From assembly GCA_032117235.1 (NCBI GenBank), contig JAULZW010000007.1, positions 4,091-68,090 of the forward strand: DNA of 64,000 nucleotides. The letters are read 5' to 3'. The position numbers and the translations under genes are program-made. The notes under the pieces were generated by a model, which did no database searches, was not told the origin of the DNA, and saw only the letters and a list, made by a program, of their open reading frames with translations. Positions 3,169 through 44,229 of this stretch are shown piece after piece; position 1 is the stretch's first letter; each line of letters opens with the position of its first letter. This stretch comes from Minisyncoccota bacterium (lineage in GTDB: Bacteria; Patescibacteriota; Minisyncoccia; SW-4-49-11).

Positions 3169-3630
3169 TTATGGACAAGCTGTTAGTGACGAGTTAACTA
3201 TTGCCTCACCTGTAGCAAGAGTTATAAATCTTGTTGTTCCTGTACTATCTGCACAATACCAGTCAAGTTCATTAGTAGTGTTTCTAGTTCTAACTGCCAT
3301 AACCCAGAATCCAACACCACTATTACCTCTTATAGGAGTAGCTGCATCACCAGTACCCAGAGTTTCTCCATTAGTGGTAAGAGTAGTACGAAGTTGACCA
3401 ATTCTACCGGCAGTGGCAGATAGAGGGTTGAGATACTTATTAGTATTTAATGTATATCCGTCTAATTCCATAATGGATCTAAGAGAGGATAGAGCTGATT
3501 GCACAGAAGCTGCTCTACCACGACTTCTAGCACTATTTACATTTACTAATACTACTGAGGCTAAGATACCAATAATGGCAATTACCACAAGTAATTCAAT
3601 CAATGTAAATCCTTTTTGTAATTTTTTCAT
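3169..3630 (-). CDS. pilA: Major type IV pilin (PilA-like). N-terminus MKKLQKGFTLIELLVVIAIIGILA, C-terminal Cys pair.
   Basis: Canonical prepilin leader. 153 aa with C...C near the C-terminus (disulfide loop). Strong SD AAAGGAGGTG 7 nt upstream and a TATAAT -10 at 3687..3682 suggest a dedicated promoter and high expression. Confidence 0.75.
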   Translation of the reverse strand: MKKLQKGFTLIELLVVIAIIGILASVVLVNVNSARSRGRAASVQSALSSLRSIMELDGYTLNTNKYLNPLSATAGRIGQLRTTLTTNGETLGTGDAATPIRGNSGVGFWVMAVRTRNTTNELDWYCADSTGTTRFITLATGEAIVNSSLTACP

Positions 3631-3689
3631 TTTTTCACACCTCCTTTCTTTATCATATATTTACATTTATTTAATATCTTGATTATATT

Positions 3690-15139: not shown

Positions 15140-16423
15140 TCACAAACTCCAATCAGATTGAATAAATTTATCTAACTTTTTATTATTAATCTTATCATCA
15201 AGACTAAAATTAAATCCTTCTATACCAGATTGTTTTTGAATTTCCAAGTCATACTTATCTAGTTTAGTCAAAGTATAATCAATTACAATATCTTTTGAAC
15301 TATTAACTGGAACTTTAATCTCAAAGCCAGCAATTTTTTTATTATAAGATGTAGTATAATCAACCTCATTCATCCTATTTTCAACACCTATAACACCATT
15401 AACAAAAGAATCCTTAGGTAATAAAACTCTAGTATAAGATTTATAATCATTATTGAGAGGTGAAGCAGATTTAGCTGTATTAATATAAGTAATAATAATT
15501 TTGGAACAAATTTTATCGCCACAGTCCCTAACATCTTTTTTTATAGATCTTTTCATATAATAATCAGTTTTCAAAGCTCCCAAATTAGCATCTACCAACA
15601 TAAAATAATCTCCCTTAATATTAGTGTCTATCTCACCGTCCCAATTTAGTTTGCTAATTTTAGCTTGAATCTTATCATCCTTACTCCAAAGTAAAATTTG
15701 CTTTTGCCGAGCCTGTTCTATAAGCATATTTCCAAGTTTATATAATGTTTGAGGAGAAGCTTTGCGAATTTTATTCTCCATCTGAACTGCTAAATTTTTA
15801 ATTGGCTCTTTACGGTCAGAACGACTTATACCCTTTTCAGCAAATCCAAAATTCAATTCATACTGTACAGATAATAATACATTTTCCGCATTCAATGCAC
15901 CCTCTATTCCTTCAACATATATTGGCCCAATAATCTTTAATATTTCTGGTAAAATAGAAGCATTAAATCCAATAATTCCAGCTATATCTTGAGTCCCCCC
16001 CTCCAATTTATATAAGTCTATAATTTGTTTAGCCGTAGTTGGAAAATCAGGAGACCAATTTGAATCTCTTAATTGCATTGTATTTATACCCAACATATTT
16101 TTATAAGCATCTGGAGCCTCGATACCAGGTTTACCATAATCAAAAACATTTGTATTATAAATAGTATATTTTTTAATTTTACCAGAATTCAAAGTAACTT
16201 CCGCAAAATTTCCAATATAACCTCCTGTTGGTCTTAATTCCAAAGTATTCTGAAATATAACTAAATAAGTAACTTCTTTTTGTGACCTAATAGAATTAAT
16301 AAGATCCAATTCCAACCTATATTTAGACCAGAAAATTGCAATCACAATTATAGCTACAATTACAATAACTACAAATATTAAAGATATAATTTTGAATATA
16401 TTCTTTTTAGAGAAAGACCTCAT
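15140..16423 (-). CDS. DUF4012-family membrane-anchored protein (function unknown, associated with polysaccharide clusters).
   Basis: 427 aa. N-terminal TM, conserved RPTGGYIGNF and DSNWSPDFP motifs shared with the paralog at 51193..53496. Immediately upstream of a GT4 gene. Confidence 0.55.
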   Translation of the reverse strand: MRSFSKKNIFKIISLIFVVIVIVAIIVIAIFWSKYRLELDLINSIRSQKEVTYLVIFQNTLELRPTGGYIGNFAEVTLNSGKIKKYTIYNTNVFDYGKPGIEAPDAYKNMLGINTMQLRDSNWSPDFPTTAKQIIDLYKLEGGTQDIAGIIGFNASILPEILKIIGPIYVEGIEGALNAENVLLSVQYELNFGFAEKGISRSDRKEPIKNLAVQMENKIRKASPQTLYKLGNMLIEQARQKQILLWSKDDKIQAKISKLNWDGEIDTNIKGDYFMLVDANLGALKTDYYMKRSIKKDVRDCGDKICSKIIITYINTAKSASPLNNDYKSYTRVLLPKDSFVNGVIGVENRMNEVDYTTSYNKKIAGFEIKVPVNSSKDIVIDYTLTKLDKYDLEIQKQSGIEGFNFSLDDKINNKKLDKFIQSDWSL

Positions 16424-17636: not shown

Positions 17637-17736
17637 AAACCGTCATAATTTATGATACCATAAAAATCTATTTTTGTCAAAAAATTATAGCAATCACAAG
17701 TCTATAAAAACGACTCCCCCTGACGACTTAGCGTAA

Positions 17737-17747
17737 GGGGGGGGGGG
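17737..17747. repeat. G11 homopolymer (followed by AGG) just inside the left edge of the GC-rich island. A C5 run lies 17 nt upstream.
   Basis: Read directly. C5...G11 could pair as a hairpin. Long poly-G is also a known two-colour Illumina artefact and a slipped-strand hotspot. Confidence 0.9.
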
Positions 17748-17837
17748 AGGGACAAAAGTGGTATTCAGTTTTTAGTATTTAGTTTTTCAGACTAACTCCC
17801 GGCCTCCAAGGGGGAGTGTATGTGCTTAGTATAGACT

Positions 17838-18413
17838 TTAACTGTAAGTCTCTTCTCCTCTCAAAATGGCTAGTGCTTTGGGCATCATATGGGGTTCATA
17901 GACCCTAATAACTGCTAAAGGTGAAAGGAATCTCCGCTCAATCGTTGCTCCTAACCTATAATCACTACTATCATCAACCCTCTTCCAAGCTAGGTCAGAT
18001 ACGAACAACATAAAGCTTTTGTTGTTCCACTGCTGTTCCATAGTAGGATCAGTAGCAGGAGCTGAAGTATATTTAGTTGTGTGGATAGTAGTTGTGTGGA
18101 TAGAGTTTTTTGTACTGCTATCGTAGGGAACGGGTGTTGATGCCAGAACGGGCGCTGGAGCGGTGGCAACTGATGCAGGCGCTGGAGCGGTGGCAACTGG
18201 TGCCGGTGCTGGAGCGGTGGCAACTGGTGCCGGTGCTGAGGCTGGTATTAGCTCAGATTGTAAAATCCCTTGCCTCTGTCGAGAGCTTTGGATCATACTT
18301 TGAATATCTAACACATCTGCTTTCACAGAAGAGTGGACTTCACTCGCAGCTACAGGAGCTGCAAAGAGCAGGACTGCCGTTGTAAACAGCCCTATAAGAA
18401 ATCGGTTTCTCAT
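17838..18413 (-). CDS. Small secreted protein with a Pro/Ala-rich tandem repeat (APAPVAT units). Foreign GC-rich codon usage. The likely true start is the ATG at 18413, not the TTG at 18494.
   Basis: Signal peptide MRNRFLIGLFTTAVLLFAAPVAASEV begins at an internal ATG preceded by GAGGT. The track's TTG start is the TTGACA -35 hexamer of the promoter. The N-terminal half is about 60% GC. Confidence 0.5.
   Translation of the reverse strand: MRNRFLIGLFTTAVLLFAAPVAASEVHSSVKADVLDIQSMIQSSRQRQGILQSELIPASAPAPVATAPAPAPVATAPAPASVATAPAPVLASTPVPYDSSTKNSIHTTTIHTTKYTSAPATDPTMEQQWNNKSFMLFVSDLAWKRVDDSSDYRLGATIERRFLSPLAVIRVYEPHMMPKALAILRGEETYS
18140..18240. repeat. Tandem 27-nt repeat, about 3.5 copies (CTGGAGCGGTGGCAACTGRTGCMGGYG), encoding APAPVAT/APAPAPVAT/APAPASVAT on the minus strand.
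   Basis: Read directly. Units differ at 2-3 positions. Confidence 0.6.
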
Positions 18414-18465
18414 TGAAACCTCAATAGGACTAATGGACGGCAGCCGACATACTGCCTTGTGGTGA

Positions 18466-18494
18466 TTTATAACATATTTTGTAACTTTTGTCAA
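18466..18494 (-). promoter_or_regulatory. Sigma70-type promoter TTGACA-N17-TATAAA for the 17838..18413 gene.
   Basis: Minus-strand read: TTGACAaaagttacaaaatatgtTATAAA, with the ATG about 50 nt downstream. Confidence 0.4.
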
Positions 18495-18561
18495 TAAATT
18501 ACAAAGATATTTATGTTTTATAAAAAAATAAACTCCTATATTAGGTTATAGTAGTTAGGTA

Positions 18562-18594
18562 TAAAAAAACCACCCTCAACTCTGTGCTGAGGGC
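18562..18594 (-). terminator. Rho-independent terminator after the 18608..19237 gene: CCCTCA-N9-TGAGGG stem followed by a U7 run on the minus strand.
   Basis: Read directly. Minus strand reads CCCTCAGCACAGAGTTGAGGGtggTTTTTTTAT. Confidence 0.5.
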
Positions 18595-18607
18595 GTGATG
18601 TGATGGA

Positions 18608-19237
18608 TCAGTTGTTTTTAGTAAGGAGGCTTGTGGCTTCCTCGTATCTCCCCTGATTAGCAGCTTGGTCGGCTGCTGCGAGGTTGGGATGATGATTGCC
18701 GGCCCGCTTTCTAGCCTTTCTATAGGCATCCTGAGCTTCCTCAGAAGCCGCAAAGCCTTTAAAAGATTCCCTACGTAAAACCTCTCGAGTTTTCAGTGCC
18801 CAATCAAGCTCTTTTTCGCGAAGGAGCTGACTATTAAGGGCTTCACACGAGATGATCGTGTCAGCTCTTACTGAATCGAGGTGGCGGCTAAACTCTTCTT
18901 CTGGAAGGTTTGGCTGAACTGTCGTACTATTCAAGCCTCCGCTCACCCCAGTTCCGAAGAGGGAGAAGGCTGCAGAACCCCCAGTGGAGTTGATATTAGC
19001 AGCCTTGCTCACCACAAGGCGAGATTTAAGGACAACAATCTGTCCGTTGTAGAGGCAGGGGAAGCTGTCCTCCCTCTCAAAACTAGACCTCCCCTCTTGG
19101 CCAGGAGCACCCGGAAATCCGGGCGCAATGGCAGGTGATACTGGGGCTCTATATTCCCAAGCTTTCGCTGGGAGAATAGCCCCAGCCCCAATGACAAAAG
19201 TGGCTAAATACAGCTGAAATCGAGTTAGATTTCTCAT
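18608..19237 (-). CDS. Secreted hypothetical protein (209 aa, signal peptide MRNLTRFQLYLATFVIGAGAILPAKA). Foreign GC-rich codon usage.
   Basis: ORF with a clear Sec signal and AXA cleavage site. About 55-58% GC with C-ending codons against a genome of about 30%. The upstream leader is CU-rich with no SD. Confidence 0.5.
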   Translation of the reverse strand: MRNLTRFQLYLATFVIGAGAILPAKAWEYRAPVSPAIAPGFPGAPGQEGRSSFEREDSFPCLYNGQIVVLKSRLVVSKAANINSTGGSAAFSLFGTGVSGGLNSTTVQPNLPEEEFSRHLDSVRADTIISCEALNSQLLREKELDWALKTREVLRRESFKGFAASEEAQDAYRKARKRAGNHHPNLAAADQAANQGRYEEATSLLTKNN

Positions 19238-19277
19238 GAGAGGACGACGAGGAGATATGGTTTTGAGGGCTAAAGGG

Positions 19278-19336
19278 ACTCTTTAGCACCTTTTAATATA
19301 TATCTACACTGAATATACTAAAAGGTGCTAAAGAGT
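19278..19336. repeat. Perfect 18-bp inverted repeat (ACTCTTTAGCACCTTTTA ... TAAAAGGTGCTAAAGAGT) with a 23-nt loop, in the AT-rich spacer between two island genes.
   Basis: Verified base by base (19278-19295 against 19319-19336). It lies inside the predicted 5' leader of the 18608..19237 gene. A T-run follows on the plus strand. Confidence 0.6.
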
Positions 19337-19422
19337 ATTTTTATCAAAAACCTATCTCTATAAAGATTTAATTATAAATGAGCATCAAATTGGTATAAAT
19401 TATGAATTAATACCATAGGCGG

Positions 19423-19451
19423 AATATAACACAAAATTTTAATTCTGTCAA
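19423..19451 (-). promoter_or_regulatory. Candidate sigma70 promoter TTGACA-N17-TATATT, about 180 nt upstream of the 18608..19237 start.
   Basis: Minus-strand read: TTGACAgaattaaaattttgtgtTATATT. The implied long leader contains the 18-bp hairpin. Confidence 0.35.
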
Positions 19452-19499
19452 ATCATAACAACATCATTGTTATATATTTATAAGTAAAAGAGCCCGCTC

Positions 19500-19531
19500 A
19501 TACATGGGTATGAACGGGCGGGTAAGGTGCT
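19500..19531 (-). terminator. Rho-independent terminator after the 19545..19970 gene (GCCCGTTCAT-N8-ATGAGCGGGC, then TCTTTTACTT).
   Basis: Read directly. 10-bp stem with one mismatch and a U-rich tail. Confidence 0.45.
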
Positions 19532-19544
19532 GAGCAACGAGGGC

Positions 19545-19970
19545 TCAGTGAAGAGAACCACAAGGAGCAGGTGCGTGGTGAACAGGCACGTTGCCCACCA
19601 GGGGTGGGCGTGACCGTTGACCCTGCTGGGAGCAGGTGGCGGGCTGAAGCCGAAGTTGCGTTCCAGCACCAACAAGCAAAACAGGATATCCGGTCTCCGG
19701 TTCAATGAACCGGGTGGCCCCAGGGAAGTTGATGTGGTTGTTGTTGGTCCACAGATCAGGACCGACCTCAACTCCTGCTGTCACCCGGCAACCGTTGTTG
19801 ACGCGGCAATAATGCTGCGCGGCGGATATCGATACGTAGGTTCTGGCCGTCGAGTTGAGAGGCCCCACAGCTACCCGGGGGTAGATTGCCTGAGCCCTGG
19901 CGGGGACGATGGTGGCGGAAGCCACCAGAACGCCGGTGATGATGGCATTGAACTTGGAACGTTTATTCAT
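19545..19970 (-). CDS. Small secreted Cys-containing hypothetical protein (141 aa, signal peptide MNKRSKFNAIITGVLVASATIVPARAQA). Foreign GC-rich codon usage.
   Basis: Sec signal with AXA site, 4 Cys in the mature part. Third codon positions are strongly C/G (atC acC gcC ttC...). Confidence 0.5.
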   Translation of the reverse strand: MNKRSKFNAIITGVLVASATIVPARAQAIYPRVAVGPLNSTARTYVSISAAQHYCRVNNGCRVTAGVEVGPDLWTNNNHINFPGATRFIEPETGYPVLLVGAGTQLRLQPATCSQQGQRSRPPLVGNVPVHHAPAPCGSLH

Positions 19971-19996
19971 GGCATTGCCACGAGGTTTACGAAAAC

Positions 19997-20025
19997 ACTA
20001 TAGCATATTTTATACATTTTGTCAA
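19997..20025 (-). promoter_or_regulatory. Near-consensus sigma70 promoter TTGACA-N17-TATAGT for the 19545..19970 gene.
   Basis: Minus-strand read: TTGACAaaatgtataaaatatgcTATAGT, 26 nt upstream of the ATG. Confidence 0.45.
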
Positions 20026-20036
20026 GAGTAAAGAGC

Positions 20037-20066
20037 AAAAAAAATACCGGCCCTCGAGAGAACCGG
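20037..20066 (-). terminator. Rho-independent terminator after the 20087..20614 gene (ACCGG-N12-CCGGT, then AUUUUUUUU).
   Basis: Read directly. Minus strand reads ACCGGttctctcgagggCCGGTATTTTTTTT. Confidence 0.5.
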
Positions 20067-20086
20067 TTTGAGAATATTGTTGACAC

Positions 20087-20614
20087 CTAGTTACACAGAA
20101 ACCTTACACGCCCATTGTCATATATACATCCACCTCTTCTATGCCAAGTTGGGGCGGGATGTCTCTCATAATTAGAAGGAGATCTGTTACCCCATGTATG
20201 ATTCGAGTAATTTATGAATATATGTGTTCTAGTACTTTCATTAAAGCCTCTATACCCATCACAGTGGCCTAAAATTTGTATAACTAAAGAACAAATATCA
20301 GAATATGGTCTAATTCCTGTTCTTATTATAATACCATTGTACTCAATCTTTTCTAGCCTGGGTTGATTATCATAGTAATTCTGATTATTCCCACTCCTAT
20401 AATGGTAATTTCTTCTATTTATTTCTCTACAATAGTTATTTTCTGGGCTACACCAATTTCCTTGTTGCCAATAACCATCGTTGGCAAGAACCGGAGCTGA
20501 TGGAATAATCCAAAATGACACTGCGAGACAAATGGATTTCAGAGAAGAAAGTTTCATTGGGGTTAATTCCCTAGAGAACAACTTCACCATAGCATAAATA
20601 GCAATATTTAGCAA
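20087..20614 (-). CDS. Small secreted Asn/Tyr/Arg/Cys-rich hypothetical protein with native AT-rich codon usage. Possible start at the internal Met (MKLSSLKSICLAVSFWIIPSAPVLA).
   Basis: ORF with a signal peptide. Low-complexity N/Y/R-rich mature region with 6 Cys. Confidence 0.45.
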   Translation of the reverse strand: MLNIAIYAMVKLFSRELTPMKLSSLKSICLAVSFWIIPSAPVLANDGYWQQGNWCSPENNYCREINRRNYHYRSGNNQNYYDNQPRLEKIEYNGIIIRTGIRPYSDICSLVIQILGHCDGYRGFNESTRTHIFINYSNHTWGNRSPSNYERHPAPTWHRRGGCIYDNGRVRFLCN

Positions 20615-20625
20615 TAGCTGTATTA

Positions 20626-21696
20626 TTATATTGTATCTAAAGCTTTATCTAAGCTAATTTTATAGCTATGATTTTGTATGTAATTTTGTATATTAGATTT
20701 TATAAACTCAACATCCTGGCTATTTAAGTTTATTATCTGTTTATCTAATTCTGAATTGATATTTTCTAATATTATACCTAGATTATAATCTTGTATATCT
20801 CTGCTCATACTATGATTATCAGTGGTTATAACTGGTAAGTTTAAGCTTAAATAGTCTTTGATCTTCCCTGGATCAGCGCATAGTATTTCTGGAGTATTCT
20901 CATATAGGGCTAGCCCATAGCTTATTTGATTTTTACTAATTATATCTATTGTCTCTTGCTCGGTCTGGAACCCGTATAGAGTGATATTATTGACCTGTGA
21001 GTCTAGAATTAATTGTTGTATTTCAGCATACAAATTTCCCTGCCCTATCAAATGCAAATGATAATCGGCGGGTAATTTAGCAAAAGTTTTGACTAATAAT
21101 CTCAGATTATGTCCTTCTTTAAAATTACCCATAAATAGAAACTGCTTTGGATTCGGCTCATATTCTGGCAAATTTTTAGATTTTATACCTAAGGGAACTG
21201 TAAATACTTGTACTCTATTCAAGTTTTTGTTCTGATGCTCCTGTATAATCTGCTTATTGACTGCCCAGACTATATCTGCTCTTATATAAGCTAATTTTTC
21301 TATTCTGTTTATTAAATATCTTGAAGAGAATATATTATTATAAAAATAATAATCATAAGCATAATAAATAATTTTAGCCTTTGGATAATATCTCTTCAGC
21401 GAGAGAGCGATTGAAGCCTCTAGCCAATCTATGGCTAAAATATAATCATAATCTGTATCAAATTGCTTAGAATTTAATAAAATTTTCTTAACTTTATTAT
21501 AATGCCCCCAATAATAAGAAAGTTTAGACTTATATACAGAGATATCTATATTACCTGTATGAGTGGAATAATAGTTTTGGGGATATTGGAGAGAAGGAAA
21601 AAGGAGATAATGCACTGTATGTCCTAAATCCTGAAAACCTTTAATAATATCCTCTGATTTAGCTATATACTGGCGACCCAATACTAAAGTTTTCAT
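20626..21696 (-). CDS. Glycosyltransferase (GT-B fold, GT1/GT4-like).
   Basis: 356 aa. The C-terminal half has the Rossmann-like GT-B pattern FLFMGNF...LHLIGQG...LPVITTD. Confidence 0.6.
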   Translation of the reverse strand: MKTLVLGRQYIAKSEDIIKGFQDLGHTVHYLLFPSLQYPQNYYSTHTGNIDISVYKSKLSYYWGHYNKVKKILLNSKQFDTDYDYILAIDWLEASIALSLKRYYPKAKIIYYAYDYYFYNNIFSSRYLINRIEKLAYIRADIVWAVNKQIIQEHQNKNLNRVQVFTVPLGIKSKNLPEYEPNPKQFLFMGNFKEGHNLRLLVKTFAKLPADYHLHLIGQGNLYAEIQQLILDSQVNNITLYGFQTEQETIDIISKNQISYGLALYENTPEILCADPGKIKDYLSLNLPVITTDNHSMSRDIQDYNLGIILENINSELDKQIINLNSQDVEFIKSNIQNYIQNHSYKISLDKALDTI

Positions 21697-21700
21697 ATTT

Positions 21701-23095
21701 TCAATTCTGCTGATTAAACTTATTTTGGAGCTGATTATAATGCAATACCCCTCCTAATAATAGGAATAATAACCACATCAAAACTGTGCCTCGGAGTAAA
21801 TTATCCCAAAAGCTCACAACATATATAATGGTCATCAAAACTGCTATTGTTAAAATATAGATATTTTTACCTTTTATATATCTATAGTACAATGTAAAAA
21901 GTATATTAATGATTATAGCTAAATATATTATCAAACCTATAATTCCTTGTTCTAAAAAGATTTTAATATAGTCATTATGTACTTCTACTGAGCCTCTATA
22001 AGTACCTCTAGTCTGCTCAATAATAGTCTCAGAGCTACCTGTCCCAAAACCTATAATTGGAGACTCTAAAGCTTTATTATAAGCATCCCGCCACATATTC
22101 AATCGCCATATAACTGAATCACTTGGATCAGAGTTAAACAAACCTGTTACTCTATTAATTACAGGTATTTTGCTTAATGAAGGCAAGTCTAGAATATTGG
22201 TTGAGGCCAAAAAATTATAAGTGAAAATTAAAACTATACTTAAAACAATTAATACTGAACTAATTTTAAGGGTTTTCAATGGATATTGAAACGAACTCAT
22301 TAAAAATACAAATAAAATAAGGCCGAACCAAGCACCTCTTGTGAAAGTTATCAATAAGACAATTACATATAAACATCCAATAATACCAAATATTTCTCTT
22401 TCTAATTTCAATATTTGATTATTTTTATAAAACCATATTACACTAATCAAGGCCAGTATAATTACCGAATAATAAGCTAATACATTAGGATGCCCAAAAG
22501 TAGCTGATATACGATTTTCAAAACCTGGATTAGTATACAGTCCACTGCCAGAAAAATATTCAATATAAGCAACAATTAATGGGATAATACTCCCATAGAT
22601 AATTACTCTAATGATATTAAAAAATTTATTTTGTTTATTCACATATATCCAACCCACAAAATACAATACTATAAAACTCAGAAGTCGAATTGTCTCTTGA
22701 AAACCAGCTAATTTAGAAATACCAGTTAAAGTTAGTCCTATATAAATAAATAATACTATTATTAAGCTTTTTATAAGTGGTATATTAGTATTATTAAATA
22801 TTGTCCTGTTTTTATAAATATATATAAAAGATATTATTATTGTAAAGATAGCAATACTAGGACTTAAAGTAATCATAGGCCAGTCTGGCAAACTCAAATA
22901 TCCAATAATATCTATAGATGGTCTTATAAAAATAAGTGTTAATAAAGCTGATTCCAATGAAACTAATATTAGTAATAACAATAGCCACATTATAATACTA
23001 AATAAAAATATAACTGGCGATATATCTAATACAATACAAAGCAGTAAATTGATACCTCCAAGTACCAATATAATTTTAGAATTTATTTGAGTCAT
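21701..23095 (-). CDS. O-antigen ligase / polymerase family membrane protein (Wzy_C domain).
   Basis: 464 aa with about 10-12 TM segments. TRGAWFGLILFVFLM motif within a large periplasmic loop, as in WaaL/Wzy. Confidence 0.6.
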   Translation of the reverse strand: MTQINSKIILVLGGINLLLCIVLDISPVIFLFSIIMWLLLLLILVSLESALLTLIFIRPSIDIIGYLSLPDWPMITLSPSIAIFTIIISFIYIYKNRTIFNNTNIPLIKSLIIVLFIYIGLTLTGISKLAGFQETIRLLSFIVLYFVGWIYVNKQNKFFNIIRVIIYGSIIPLIVAYIEYFSGSGLYTNPGFENRISATFGHPNVLAYYSVIILALISVIWFYKNNQILKLEREIFGIIGCLYVIVLLITFTRGAWFGLILFVFLMSSFQYPLKTLKISSVLIVLSIVLIFTYNFLASTNILDLPSLSKIPVINRVTGLFNSDPSDSVIWRLNMWRDAYNKALESPIIGFGTGSSETIIEQTRGTYRGSVEVHNDYIKIFLEQGIIGLIIYLAIIINILFTLYYRYIKGKNIYILTIAVLMTIIYVVSFWDNLLRGTVLMWLLFLLLGGVLHYNQLQNKFNQQN

Positions 23096-23828
23096 ATTCA
23101 GTATCTGGAGTAATGTTTGGGGTGTTTTCTGAGTCTAGAATTGGGTTATGCCCCATTGTTACATCATCTGGTATAGGCGGAGATACTATATCTTCAATTC
23201 CAAAATCATAAATAATAGTATTATCCTTCCGTGTTATAACATACCCTATCCCTACCATAAATCCTAGTATAGCTGAGCCGAATAAATTTACCAGAATATT
23301 GGGTCTTCCCACTCCTTCATATAAAGCTGGCTGATTAACTATTTGTACATTAGCTGTTTCACCAAGTAGTGATTTGGCCTGGTCTGTTAATTTGTTAACC
23401 ACAGTTTTGTTCATATTCAAAGCTAATTCAGAGGATTTGTCATAAGTATCTACTGAGATAAATCCTGAACCTAAAGCTCTTGTGACAATGTTTCTAGCAA
23501 ACAATGTTCTTCTGTCTTTTAAATTTTCTGGAAATAGATTCTTTATATTTGTATTTTCTGCAATAACATTAGTGAAAAACACATCCGTATAAACTAAATC
23601 TATTAACAAATTGACATTCGAGTCAATAGATCTCTGAGCGGTATAAGAGTCAATATTAGGATTGGCTTTTTGCAATAAAACTAATTTAGATTCAGCCTTA
23701 TACTGTTTTGGTAAAAGCAAAGTTATTATCAGACCAACTAGTATAAATAATAATGTTATAATTACAATTGTATTAAATTTTTTTGTAGTCTTGGCTGCTA
23801 TTTCATTTAAATTCATACCTGAATTCAT
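23076..23828 (-). CDS. Polysaccharide chain-length determinant (Wzz/Cap5A-like).
   Basis: 250 aa. N-terminal and C-terminal TM helices flank a soluble domain, with the C-terminal GxxxG-like GFMVGIGYVI. The 3' end overlaps the downstream gene by 20 nt. Confidence 0.5.
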   Translation of the reverse strand: MNSGMNLNEIAAKTTKKFNTIVIITLLFILVGLIITLLLPKQYKAESKLVLLQKANPNIDSYTAQRSIDSNVNLLIDLVYTDVFFTNVIAENTNIKNLFPENLKDRRTLFARNIVTRALGSGFISVDTYDKSSELALNMNKTVVNKLTDQAKSLLGETANVQIVNQPALYEGVGRPNILVNLFGSAILGFMVGIGYVITRKDNTIIYDFGIEDIVSPPIPDDVTMGHNPILDSENTPNITPDTEYDSNKF

Positions 23829-23898
23829 TATTATAATTTTATATTATATTATGAAATTATAATAACATAAAAACAGAATATAGCAAAATATATAAAAA

Positions 23899-23927
23899 TT
23901 GACTTTATCTTAAATTTATGATATTAT
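23899..23927 (+). promoter_or_regulatory. Candidate promoter TTGACT-N17-TATTAT for rpmE-prfA-prmC.
   Basis: Read directly, about 35 nt upstream of the rpmE start. Confidence 0.4.
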
Positions 23928-23960
23928 TTTAGACAATTACATATATTTAATGCAACTATT

Positions 23961-42575: not shown

Positions 42576-42712
42576 AATTGAAAATAAAAAATTTATAAAT
42601 TTATTACTGTTAATAATATCATAATTTAATGATGCTGTCAATATTAAAAATATATCTATATTGTTATCCTAATCTAAATAATGTATAATAATATTATATT
42701 TAATTATGCATT

Positions 42713-43401: not shown

Positions 43402-44229
43402 CTAAGGAATGATATTTTTTTGTATTAAGAAGGTGTCCAATAAAGAATCACCATCTGATAGGTTGCTGATAATAAATTGAATAGTTCCAAAATAATACCT
43501 TGATTTACTCCAAAAATAAATACTATCCCCATTCACAACATCAAGGTTCACACCACCACTATAAACGTTATCCTCCGAACCGCTTATTAAGATAGAGCCG
43601 TTCTTGTAGATTCTCCAGTCGTTAGTGTCATCAAAATCATCTACCAGAACATTCAATGTAATTGTGGTATTTATTCCTAATATAGTTACAGTATTACTAG
43701 AGGCTCCCATACCATCGTCCGTAATATCAGGATCCCACCACATTGTATTGCTAGGTGTAAAATCTGGTGGTGATAAATTTATAGCTATGATCTGTCCTAA
43801 TTCTGAACTTGGAGCTGTAACACTGATTCTGTTATTGGCTGAGTTTCTATTAACTCTATAATTTATTACACCTGGATCAGCTGGTATTGCTGCTATATAG
43901 TTTGGGACTAAACCTCTAAGGTCGACCTTTCCATCACATAAGTTAGTTGGACTTAATGTGTCTGTTGTTGTCTGATTTCCTGTATTGCAAACTTCTTTGG
44001 GTGTATCTGTTATTCCTATTGGATAACTTCCTGTCTCTATTAAATATTGTTCTAGACCTTTGTATATACTATTTATCTCTGCTTTCCTCTCTGCATTCCT
44101 TACTTGACTTATTTGTCTTGTTGGGTTTATAGCAACGAGTACTATCGCTGATAATATCCCTATCGCTGCTATTACGAGTAATATCTCGAGTAATGTGAAT
44201 CCTTTTTGCACTCTTTTAGCTTTATGCAT
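43402..44229 (-). CDS. Orphan type IV pilin-like protein with a large C-terminal domain (275 aa).
   Basis: N-terminus MHKAKRVQKGFTLLEILLVIAAIGILSAIVLV is a canonical prepilin leader. Confidence 0.6.
   Translation of the reverse strand: MHKAKRVQKGFTLLEILLVIAAIGILSAIVLVAINPTRQISQVRNAERKAEINSIYKGLEQYLIETGSYPIGITDTPKEVCNTGNQTTTDTLSPTNLCDGKVDLRGLVPNYIAAIPADPGVINYRVNRNSANNRISVTAPSSELGQIIAINLSPPDFTPSNTMWWDPDITDDGMGASSNTVTILGINTTITLNVLVDDFDDTNDWRIYKNGSILISGSEDNVYSGGVNLDVVNGDSIYFWSKSRYYFGTIQFIISNLSDGDSLLDTFLIQKNIIP

Follow-up and report, generated by a model that had tools for sequence, protein, structure and literature searches.

Within the 64,000-nucleotide window analysed in this study (the whole stretch taken from contig JAULZW010000007.1), a run of small signal-peptide genes occupies the interval 17.6-20.1 kb, here called the slot, which lies inside a cell-envelope polysaccharide locus arranged as wzz-wzy-GT (glycosyltransferase), slot and GT4-DUF4012. 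The genome has a guanine-plus-cytosine (GC) content of about 31% and belongs to the Paceibacteria/Parcubacteria, uncultured and ultra-small members of the Candidate Phyla Radiation (CPR). The minus strand carries every gene between 23828 and 15140, including the three predicted secreted ORFans g3 (19545-19970, 141 amino acids), g2 (18608-19237, 209 amino acids) and g1 (17838-18413, 191 amino acids). The first-pass annotation counted three genes here, but four signal-peptide genes are present, the ORFan g4 having been missed (20087-20557, minus strand, 156 amino acids from the ATG at 20557). Homologues of g4 were found in the same place in the relatives L007, L008 and L014. It has a near-native GC of 0.36, lacks a convincing promoter of its own and lies 62-68 nt behind the upstream glycosyltransferase gene GT356; it is probably the last gene of a wzz-wzy-GT356 operon. 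An assembly chimera was ruled out because the g4-g3-g2 arrangement is identical in an independent Logan assembly.

Four promoters of one class were recognized on the minus strand: upstream of g3 (TTGACA-17-(TGC)TATAGT, 20025-19997, scoring 11/12, predicted transcription start site (TSS) near 19990), of g2 (P1, TTGACA-17-(TGT)TATATT, 19451-19423, 11/12, predicted TSS near 19416), of g1 (TTGACA-17-(TGT)TATAAA, 18494-18466, predicted TSS near 18459) and of GT4-DUF4012 (TTGACA-17-(TGG)TATCAT, 17680-17652). All four have a -35 hexamer matching TTGACA at six of six positions (beginning at 20025, 19451, 18494 and 17680), a spacer of exactly 17 nt and an extended -10 TG at -15/-14. The g3, g2 and GT4 boxes contain A at -11 and T at -7, whereas the TATAAA of g1 has A at -7; the default list of the promoter scan omits the g1 promoter because position 6 of its -10 is A and not T. 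The TTG start given to g1 by the open reading frame (ORF) finder, at 18494, is the TTG of the g1 -35 box, and the same artefact was seen for the S16 ORF, whose TTG start at 42641 is that of its -35 box. A possible second g2 promoter, P2 (TTTATA-17-TATAAT, 19399-19371, minus strand, 10/12), was also noted. The distance from promoter to start codon is 15-53 nt, except for g2, where it is about 186 nt.

Terminator-like hairpins followed by U-runs were found on the minus strand behind each of the four genes. After g4, a 9-bp stem (20067-20046) is followed by ATTTTTTTTG (whole element 20038-20067); after g3, a 12-bp stem (19519-19492) by TCTTTTACTT (19482-19519; -28.5 kcal/mol for the folded segment, z = -6.0); and after g2, a 10-bp stem (18595-18571) by GTTTTTTTAT (18563-18595; z = -3.3). 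The hairpin after g1 (about 17714-17747, within 17704-17751) is weak and irregular, with a C11 run as its 5' arm and a U5 run that begins 3 nt past the stem. Read on the plus strand, the homopolymer is a G11 tract (17737-17747) lying between g1 and the promoter of GT4, and it may be either a phase-variable tract that tunes read-through by strand slippage or a sign of sequencing or assembly uncertainty. Three of the approximately nine terminator-like sites downstream of window genes fall in this stretch.

Much of this agrees with the first-pass annotation, which had placed promoters with TTGACA, a 17-nt spacer and TATAGT, TATATT or TATAAA boxes exactly where they were recovered, on the minus strand and each now seen to carry a TG as well, and had described the g1 terminator as weak. 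Its g2 terminator (18562-18594) matches the stem found here. A terminator is likewise present after g3, although the interval that had been proposed (19500-19531) is shifted by about 10 nt. Not included in that annotation were g4 and its terminator, the promoter of GT4, and the long distance, with a conserved hairpin, that separates the g2 promoter from the ATG.

Such strings could in principle be functionless chance matches in AT-rich intergenic DNA. A generic scan of 10 kb found 67 promoter-like sites at the 9/12 level against 47.5 expected, and terminator-like sites in the same scan were not above shuffled sequences (7 versus 5.8). The specific patterns, however, are far from random expectation: TTGACA-N17-TATA has three matches in the window versus 0.52 expected, and TTGACA-N14-TGN-TAT has five versus 0.06 expected, a count reached in none of 100 shuffles. 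Four of these five are the consecutive, correctly oriented slot and GT4 sites, and the fifth precedes rpsP. The z-scores of the g2 and g3 terminator hairpins also speak against chance. Furthermore, in the comparison with relatives the motif reached a density of 0.89/kb in the slots but only 0.010/kb over 200 kb of flanks, an 89-fold difference over 11 loci, and the boxes are kept in position and sequence although the four-fold degenerate sites of RecG and GT4 are saturated, agreeing in only 35-45% of cases when the window is compared with its relatives. Even so, identities of 77-92% were obtained when the window's intergenic blocks were aligned with up to nine species. Since they are conserved while synonymous sites are saturated, the regulatory blocks appear to be functionally constrained, and it is this conservation that effectively refutes a chance origin, to which we give almost no credence.

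The comparison set comprised 11 related Paceibacteria/Parcubacteria assemblies. Related species were obtained by a GTDB genome scan with RecG, and the RecG of the window is 75-89% identical to that of ten Paceibacteria/Parcubacteria metagenome-assembled genomes, mostly from freshwater, which share the genes on either side of the slot; a GTDB genome scan with g2 peptide patterns retrieved no relative. One further relative, L018, was found through its g2 leader sequence. The neighbours of the slot are Wzz, Wzy, GT, GT4, DUF4012 and RecG, and the synteny is the same in the contigs that encode g2 homologues (L002, L003, L004 and L007) and in L018. Between GT356/Wzy and GT4 the relatives carry two to five signal-peptide genes with a GC of 0.45-0.63 and a GC at third codon positions (GC3) of up to 0.70, in genomes of 31-37% GC. 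This pattern holds in almost every recovered slot, the exception being L012, with a short slot and no clear signal-peptide gene.

The layout of promoter, gene and terminator is found again in the orthologous slots of 11 related species. A total of 39 TTGACA-N17-TA sites were collected from the slots of 12 species, giving the consensus TTGACA-AAA-N9-TATG(C)-TATAaT; the 17-nt spacer in all 39 follows from the pattern, as the sites were selected with N17. Between its -35 and -10 boxes this consensus has a -16 TRTG motif in the Gram-positive style; TRTG is present in 33-38 of the 39 sites, with T, R, T and G each matched in 37-38. Most of the sites lie 4-60 nt upstream of a signal-peptide ORF. Of 35 slot genes of relatives, 29 have a hairpin plus T-run no more than 130 nt past the stop codon. 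The 29-mer of the g3 promoter is identical in L017, whose RecG is 75% identical, and its block is 79-92% identical in nine relatives. Both P1 and P2 of g2 are kept in L002, L007 and L018, the g1 promoter TGTTATAAA in L002 and L018, and the GT4 promoter reaches 12/12 (TATAAT) in L002, L009, L010, L011, L014 and L018. Among the terminators, an ACCGGT..GCCGGT hairpin with T-run is kept after g4-type genes in L007, L010, L011, L013, L014 and L017, and a related CCCCTGA..TCAGGGG hairpin stands at the g1-terminator position in L002, L010 and L011. At the g3 position in L002, L007 and L018 the hairpin differs from that of the window, and one pair reads U-G, C-G or U-A with the stem kept, in these three sequences only.

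Two further motifs were seen in the 12-species site set. A TTGTTA/TTGTAA-like hexamer often stands about 10 nt upstream of the -35 TTGACA (e.g. TTGTTATCTATTGACA and TTGTTATGATTTGACA), and downstream of the g1-type -10 there is a conserved CACAAGGCAGTA. Both motifs are possible UP-element-like or regulator sites.

The reading that we consider probable is that the slot consists of clade-conserved units, g3, g2 and g1, each with a strong promoter and a terminator, in which a variable coding payload is set among conserved regulatory blocks. The upstream operon would end with g4 at the terminator 20067-20046, and g3, g2 and g1 would each be monocistronic, starting at a housekeeping promoter of the sigma-70/sigma-A type (perfect -35, 17-nt spacer, TRTG/extended -10) and ending at an intrinsic hairpin-U terminator, after which transcription would restart for GT4-DUF4012 from a fourth promoter of the same class. 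Selection would hold the regulatory blocks constant while the payloads diverge fast or are exchanged between lineages. The motifs with their statistics, the synteny, the conservation and the composition are observed here, whereas the TSSs, termination, expression level, secretion and protein function of the slot genes are inferred. The earlier proposal that each gene forms its own transcription unit would stand in so far as each is bracketed by its own promoter and hairpin-U element in a recurring layout, and is less secure for g1, with its weak terminator and TATAAA box.

A different arrangement would be one long operon from wzz to DUF4012, in which the internal promoters are minor and the hairpins serve as processing or stability elements. 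The common strand from 23828 to 15140 is consistent with this, as are the lack of a promoter for g4, the weak terminator of g1 and the interrupted U-tracts after g3 (TCTTTTAC) and g1. However, behind each of three good terminators there stands, within 20-70 nt, a promoter whose -35 is perfect, whose spacer is 17 nt and whose -10 has the TG. This is the classic stop-restart arrangement, and it is conserved in 11 species; the intergenic gaps in the slot, moreover, measure 116-307 nt, where genuine operons in the window leave only a few nt. A single long operon therefore seems improbable.

Several observations weigh against separate, strongly transcribed units. The g1 -10 lacks the T at -7 that is normally required by sigma-70, a variant that is also kept in L002 and L018, and the weakness of the g1 terminator means that g1 may read through into GT4. 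For g2, a very stable hairpin stands in the 186 nt between promoter and ATG and could attenuate or control expression, so that a strong promoter need not mean high protein output. The signal peptides of g1-g4 were judged by eye on the translations. Finally, whole intergenic blocks, spacers included, are conserved beyond the contacts of RNA polymerase, and other functions may be superimposed on them.

The expected strength of the slot promoters can be judged from the rest of the window, in which the best promoter within 250 nt upstream of each of the 61 genes was scored. Only GT4, g1, g2, g3 and rplK (L11, 63014-63439) have the top score, with rpsP (S16), rplJ (L10), L25 and L31 next; comparable promoters elsewhere in the window thus occur only before ribosomal-protein genes. 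Given that promoters of such quality are otherwise confined to these, g1-g3 are most likely very strongly transcribed and among the most strongly transcribed genes of the cell. That their promoter class is the ribosomal-protein class of this organism is the best in-silico argument for strong transcription, and the strong expression suggested by the first reading fits with it. The L31 promoter (23895-23928, plus strand) and the S16 promoter (42612-42645, minus strand) are 79% identical over 34 nt (ATTGACw...AAwTTATGATATTATT). An absent Shine-Dalgarno sequence was considered as a peculiarity of the slot and rejected, being genome-wide: only three of 56 window genes have a Shine-Dalgarno-like core no more than 22 nt from the start codon, and upstream regions are instead extremely rich in A and T. 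Translation initiation in this genome seems to be largely independent of Shine-Dalgarno pairing.

The base composition of the slot genes is distinctive. The GC of g1-g3 is 0.47-0.59 (0.51 in g2 and 0.59 in g3) and their GC3 is 0.37-0.62 (0.46 in g2 and 0.62 in g3), versus a GC3 of 0.197 +/- 0.031 in the other 58 genes (z = 5.5-13.4). Similarly, GC3 is 0.37-0.70 in the slots of the window, L002, L007, L008, L010-L015, L017 and L018. This composition, together with the ORFan nature of the proteins, would be expected had a recent foreign island from a GC-richer donor brought along its own promoters and terminators. Yet GC-rich signal-peptide genes occupy the slot of relatives with RecG identity down to 75% (L012 excepted), and a one-off import should have ameliorated over a divergence at which the flanking four-fold sites are saturated. 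The GC at four-fold sites (GC4) of the slot genes nevertheless stays at 0.41-0.52, which argues that their GC-richness is being maintained. No integrase or transposase, adjacent tRNA or flanking direct repeat of at least 30 nt was found at the slot, the nearest tRNA lying about 5 kb away beyond three genes. Moreover, the promoter type is that of the host's own ribosomal-protein genes, and no homologues outside the clade were found among 5.8 billion or 1.8 billion proteins. On the strength of the clade-wide synteny, the lack of mobility genes and repeats, the lack of outside homologues and the maintained GC4, we conclude from the comparative data that the slot is not a recent foreign island, a history that we consider very unlikely.

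The contrast that the first-pass annotation had drawn, between an island with obvious signals and native genes without them, must accordingly be recast. Most other genes of the window are indeed packed at gaps of a few nt and the top promoter score is rare, but the division does not run between island and native DNA: the adjacent native GT4 has the best-conserved promoter of the same class, and the slot is syntenic throughout the clade. The suggestion of a cassette-like modular organisation holds well in an evolutionary sense, with regulatory blocks conserved and the coding payload variable or replaced.

As for the cause of the high GC3, high expression as the sole explanation was rejected, since the ribosomal-protein genes of the window have a GC3 of no more than 0.28. 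GC-biased gene conversion at a recombination hotspot, selection on the mRNA and repeated replacement are all candidates. No template/variable repeat pair of a diversity-generating retroelement (DGR) and no invertible element was found in the window, where reverse transcriptase was not systematically searched. The only repeat pairs involving 17.8-20.1 kb are an internal 27-nt tandem repeat and the hairpin of the g2 leader.

The comparisons show the slot to be a clade-conserved regulatory scaffold around a hypervariable or exchangeable coding payload. Its gene content varies among species with 85-89% identical RecG; L008, for example, has no g2, yet sequence matching the g2 P1 block survives there in front of another gene. 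Between L002 and L018, with 94% identical RecG (L002 5600-7800 aligned to the reverse strand of L018), the intergenic parts of the slot are 92-94% identical and the g2 promoter and leader 92% identical, against 50-58% in the centre of g2. The g2 of L018 looks mosaic, with an N-terminus resembling P0006 and a mature part resembling P0010/P0012, which suggests allele exchange by recombination.

The varying gene content, the drop in identity inside g2 and the conservation of whole blocks, which takes in the spacers as well as some 190 nt of g2 leader and so extends well past the hexamers, could also be explained if the intergenic blocks were mainly sites for a dedicated regulator or homology arms for payload swapping, the promoter boxes forming only a part of them. 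Such a function, however, would complement the promoter reading and not supplant it; the slot has no linked regulator gene, and the same motif class drives ribosomal-protein genes, at which no swapping would be expected. As the main role of the blocks it is unlikely.

Within the preferred reading of conserved promoter-terminator units, we tentatively raise a more specific possibility, namely that the slot is a lineage-specific locus with a fixed expression scaffold and a swappable payload, in which near-invariant signals of ribosomal-protein strength drive small secreted or surface proteins that diversify or are exchanged by recombination. If this were so, the slot proteins would be candidates for the factors by which an episymbiotic CPR bacterium attaches to or interacts with its host, their high GC3 would owe its persistence to selection or to GC-biased gene conversion at a hotspot of recombination and would not be a relic of import, and the g2 leader would be an undescribed cis-acting RNA, either an mRNA stabiliser or a regulatory switch.

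The g2 leader (19238-19423, 186 nt) contains a long hairpin with arms of 31 nt each (19271-19343, minus strand), preceded by the P2 box. The folding energy of the leader is -53.1 kcal/mol (z = -8.6), and immediately downstream of the long hairpin there is a possible alternative to it, the small hairpin GCUAAAG..CUUUAGC. Column identity of the leader over four species is 82%, while their g2 proteins are only 43-66% identical; its sequence is unique in the window. No Rfam family matched the 17.4-20.7 kb region, where isrG gave only a chance match at 15 bits. A leader peptide was considered and rejected, as the 14-codon ORF present in the window and L007 is not kept in L002 and L018. We propose the leader as a candidate new cis-acting RNA, which could be an mRNA-stabilising 5' hairpin or a regulatory switch; this conserved and structured element is the only hint of gene-specific control in the slot.

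In each of g1-g4 the N-terminus consists of a basic n-region and a hydrophobic core followed by an A-x-A-like, small-x-small cleavage motif (VAA|SE, AKA|WE, ARA|QA and VLA|ND), and a crude test for a hydrophobic run was positive for nearly all slot proteins. Searches of Pfam, NCBIfam and PHROGs gave nothing credible for g1-g4. A database of 5.8 billion proteins returned 12 proteins for g2, two for g3 (one besides itself) and five for g1, and a g2 profile search of 1.8 billion representatives gave nine matches; the g1-g3 families seem, by these searches, to be confined to this clade. The g2 protein has two invariant cysteines and a TPR-like C-terminal helix pair. Its AlphaFold2 model, built from 12 sequences, reached a predicted local distance difference test (pLDDT) score of 61.5 and a predicted template modelling (pTM) score of 0.32, and Foldseek found no PDB match to it with E <= 0.001. 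In g1, an Ala/Pro-rich linker (APAPVAT) is encoded by a 27-nt tandem repeat of 3.3 copies (18151-18238, 95% match), the copy number of which may vary between strains; a 15-nt repeat of 2.3 copies (18074-18107) adjoins it.

Two proposed relationships among these proteins were discarded. Single-linkage clustering joined g3 and g4 as paralogues, but direct BLASTP between them gave E = 73, and the match of g1, as a truncated member, to a slot family of 358-395 amino acids was not significant (E = 0.11). Based on the signal peptides, the position within an envelope-polysaccharide locus and the promoter class, the products of g1-g4 are most plausibly abundant surface or secreted proteins, and possibly act at the host interface.

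The promoters and terminators of the slot appear, from their sequence, to be canonical sigma-70/sigma-A promoters and intrinsic terminators, textbook in kind. Extended -10 promoters of the '-16 TRTG' type are reportedly known from Bacillus subtilis and other Gram-positive bacteria. The slot promoters resemble sigma-70/sigma-A extended -10 promoters in their perfect TTGACA, 17-nt spacer and TATG before a TATAAT-like -10; they differ in that the last -10 position varies (T, A, G or C) in some conserved cases, such as the TATAAA of g1, that the spacer sequences are conserved too, and that they occur in an uncultured CPR bacterium. The terminators have the usual GC-rich hairpin of 9-12 bp, loop of 4-5 nt and U-run, 40-60 nt past the stop codon, from which the irregular g1 element, with its C11 arm and offset U-run, departs.

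Escherichia coli ompA and lpp and Lactobacillus slpA encode very abundant envelope proteins as monocistronic genes, in which a strong or tandem promoter and a long structured 5' leader precede the coding region and a strong terminator follows it; 5' hairpins stabilise the mRNA in ompA or S-layer messages. The g2 gene is alike in its tandem promoter-like boxes, long leader with a stable hairpin, signal peptide and strong terminator. In sequence and fold, g2 does not resemble OmpA, Lpp or S-layer proteins. The slot also recalls hypervariable surface-antigen loci in polysaccharide clusters in its wzz-wzy-GT/GT4 location, rapid coding divergence and turnover of content. It departs from them in that its payloads are small ORFans belonging to no known family of adhesins or antigens, that the raised GC3 persists, and that the window showed neither a DGR-like repeat nor an invertible element.

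Very little mapping of promoters or terminators exists for the CPR/Patescibacteria, most of which are uncultured, and a literature search on CPR promoter or TSS mapping and on Parcubacteria expression found nothing relevant. The locus offers a comparatively validated strong-promoter consensus (TTGACA, 17 nt, TRTG plus TATAAT) that could seed promoter models for the group, and it marks three or four ORFans as secreted proteins that are likely to be highly expressed, of the kind that would mediate host contact. The parts that deserve most attention are the maintained GC-rich composition, the conserved scaffold with its variable payload and the conserved g2 leader.

The remaining genes of the polysaccharide locus, all on the minus strand, are wzz (23076-23828), wzy (21701-23095) and the GT4-family glycosyltransferase GT356 (20626-21696) upstream of the slot, with the second glycosyltransferase GT4 (16428-17612/17636) and the DUF4012 protein (15140-16423) downstream. 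Elsewhere in the window, three minus-strand genes share at their 5' ends a 51-nt repeat family (1210-1260, 2216-2266 and 3583-3633), the reverse complement of which encodes prepilin N-termini of the MKTKKGFTLVELMVV type. Another pilin-like gene (KGFTLLEILLV) was found at 43402-44229, and together with the three repeat-bearing genes it looks, from the encoded N-termini, like a type IV pilin/pseudopilin cluster typical of CPR bacteria.

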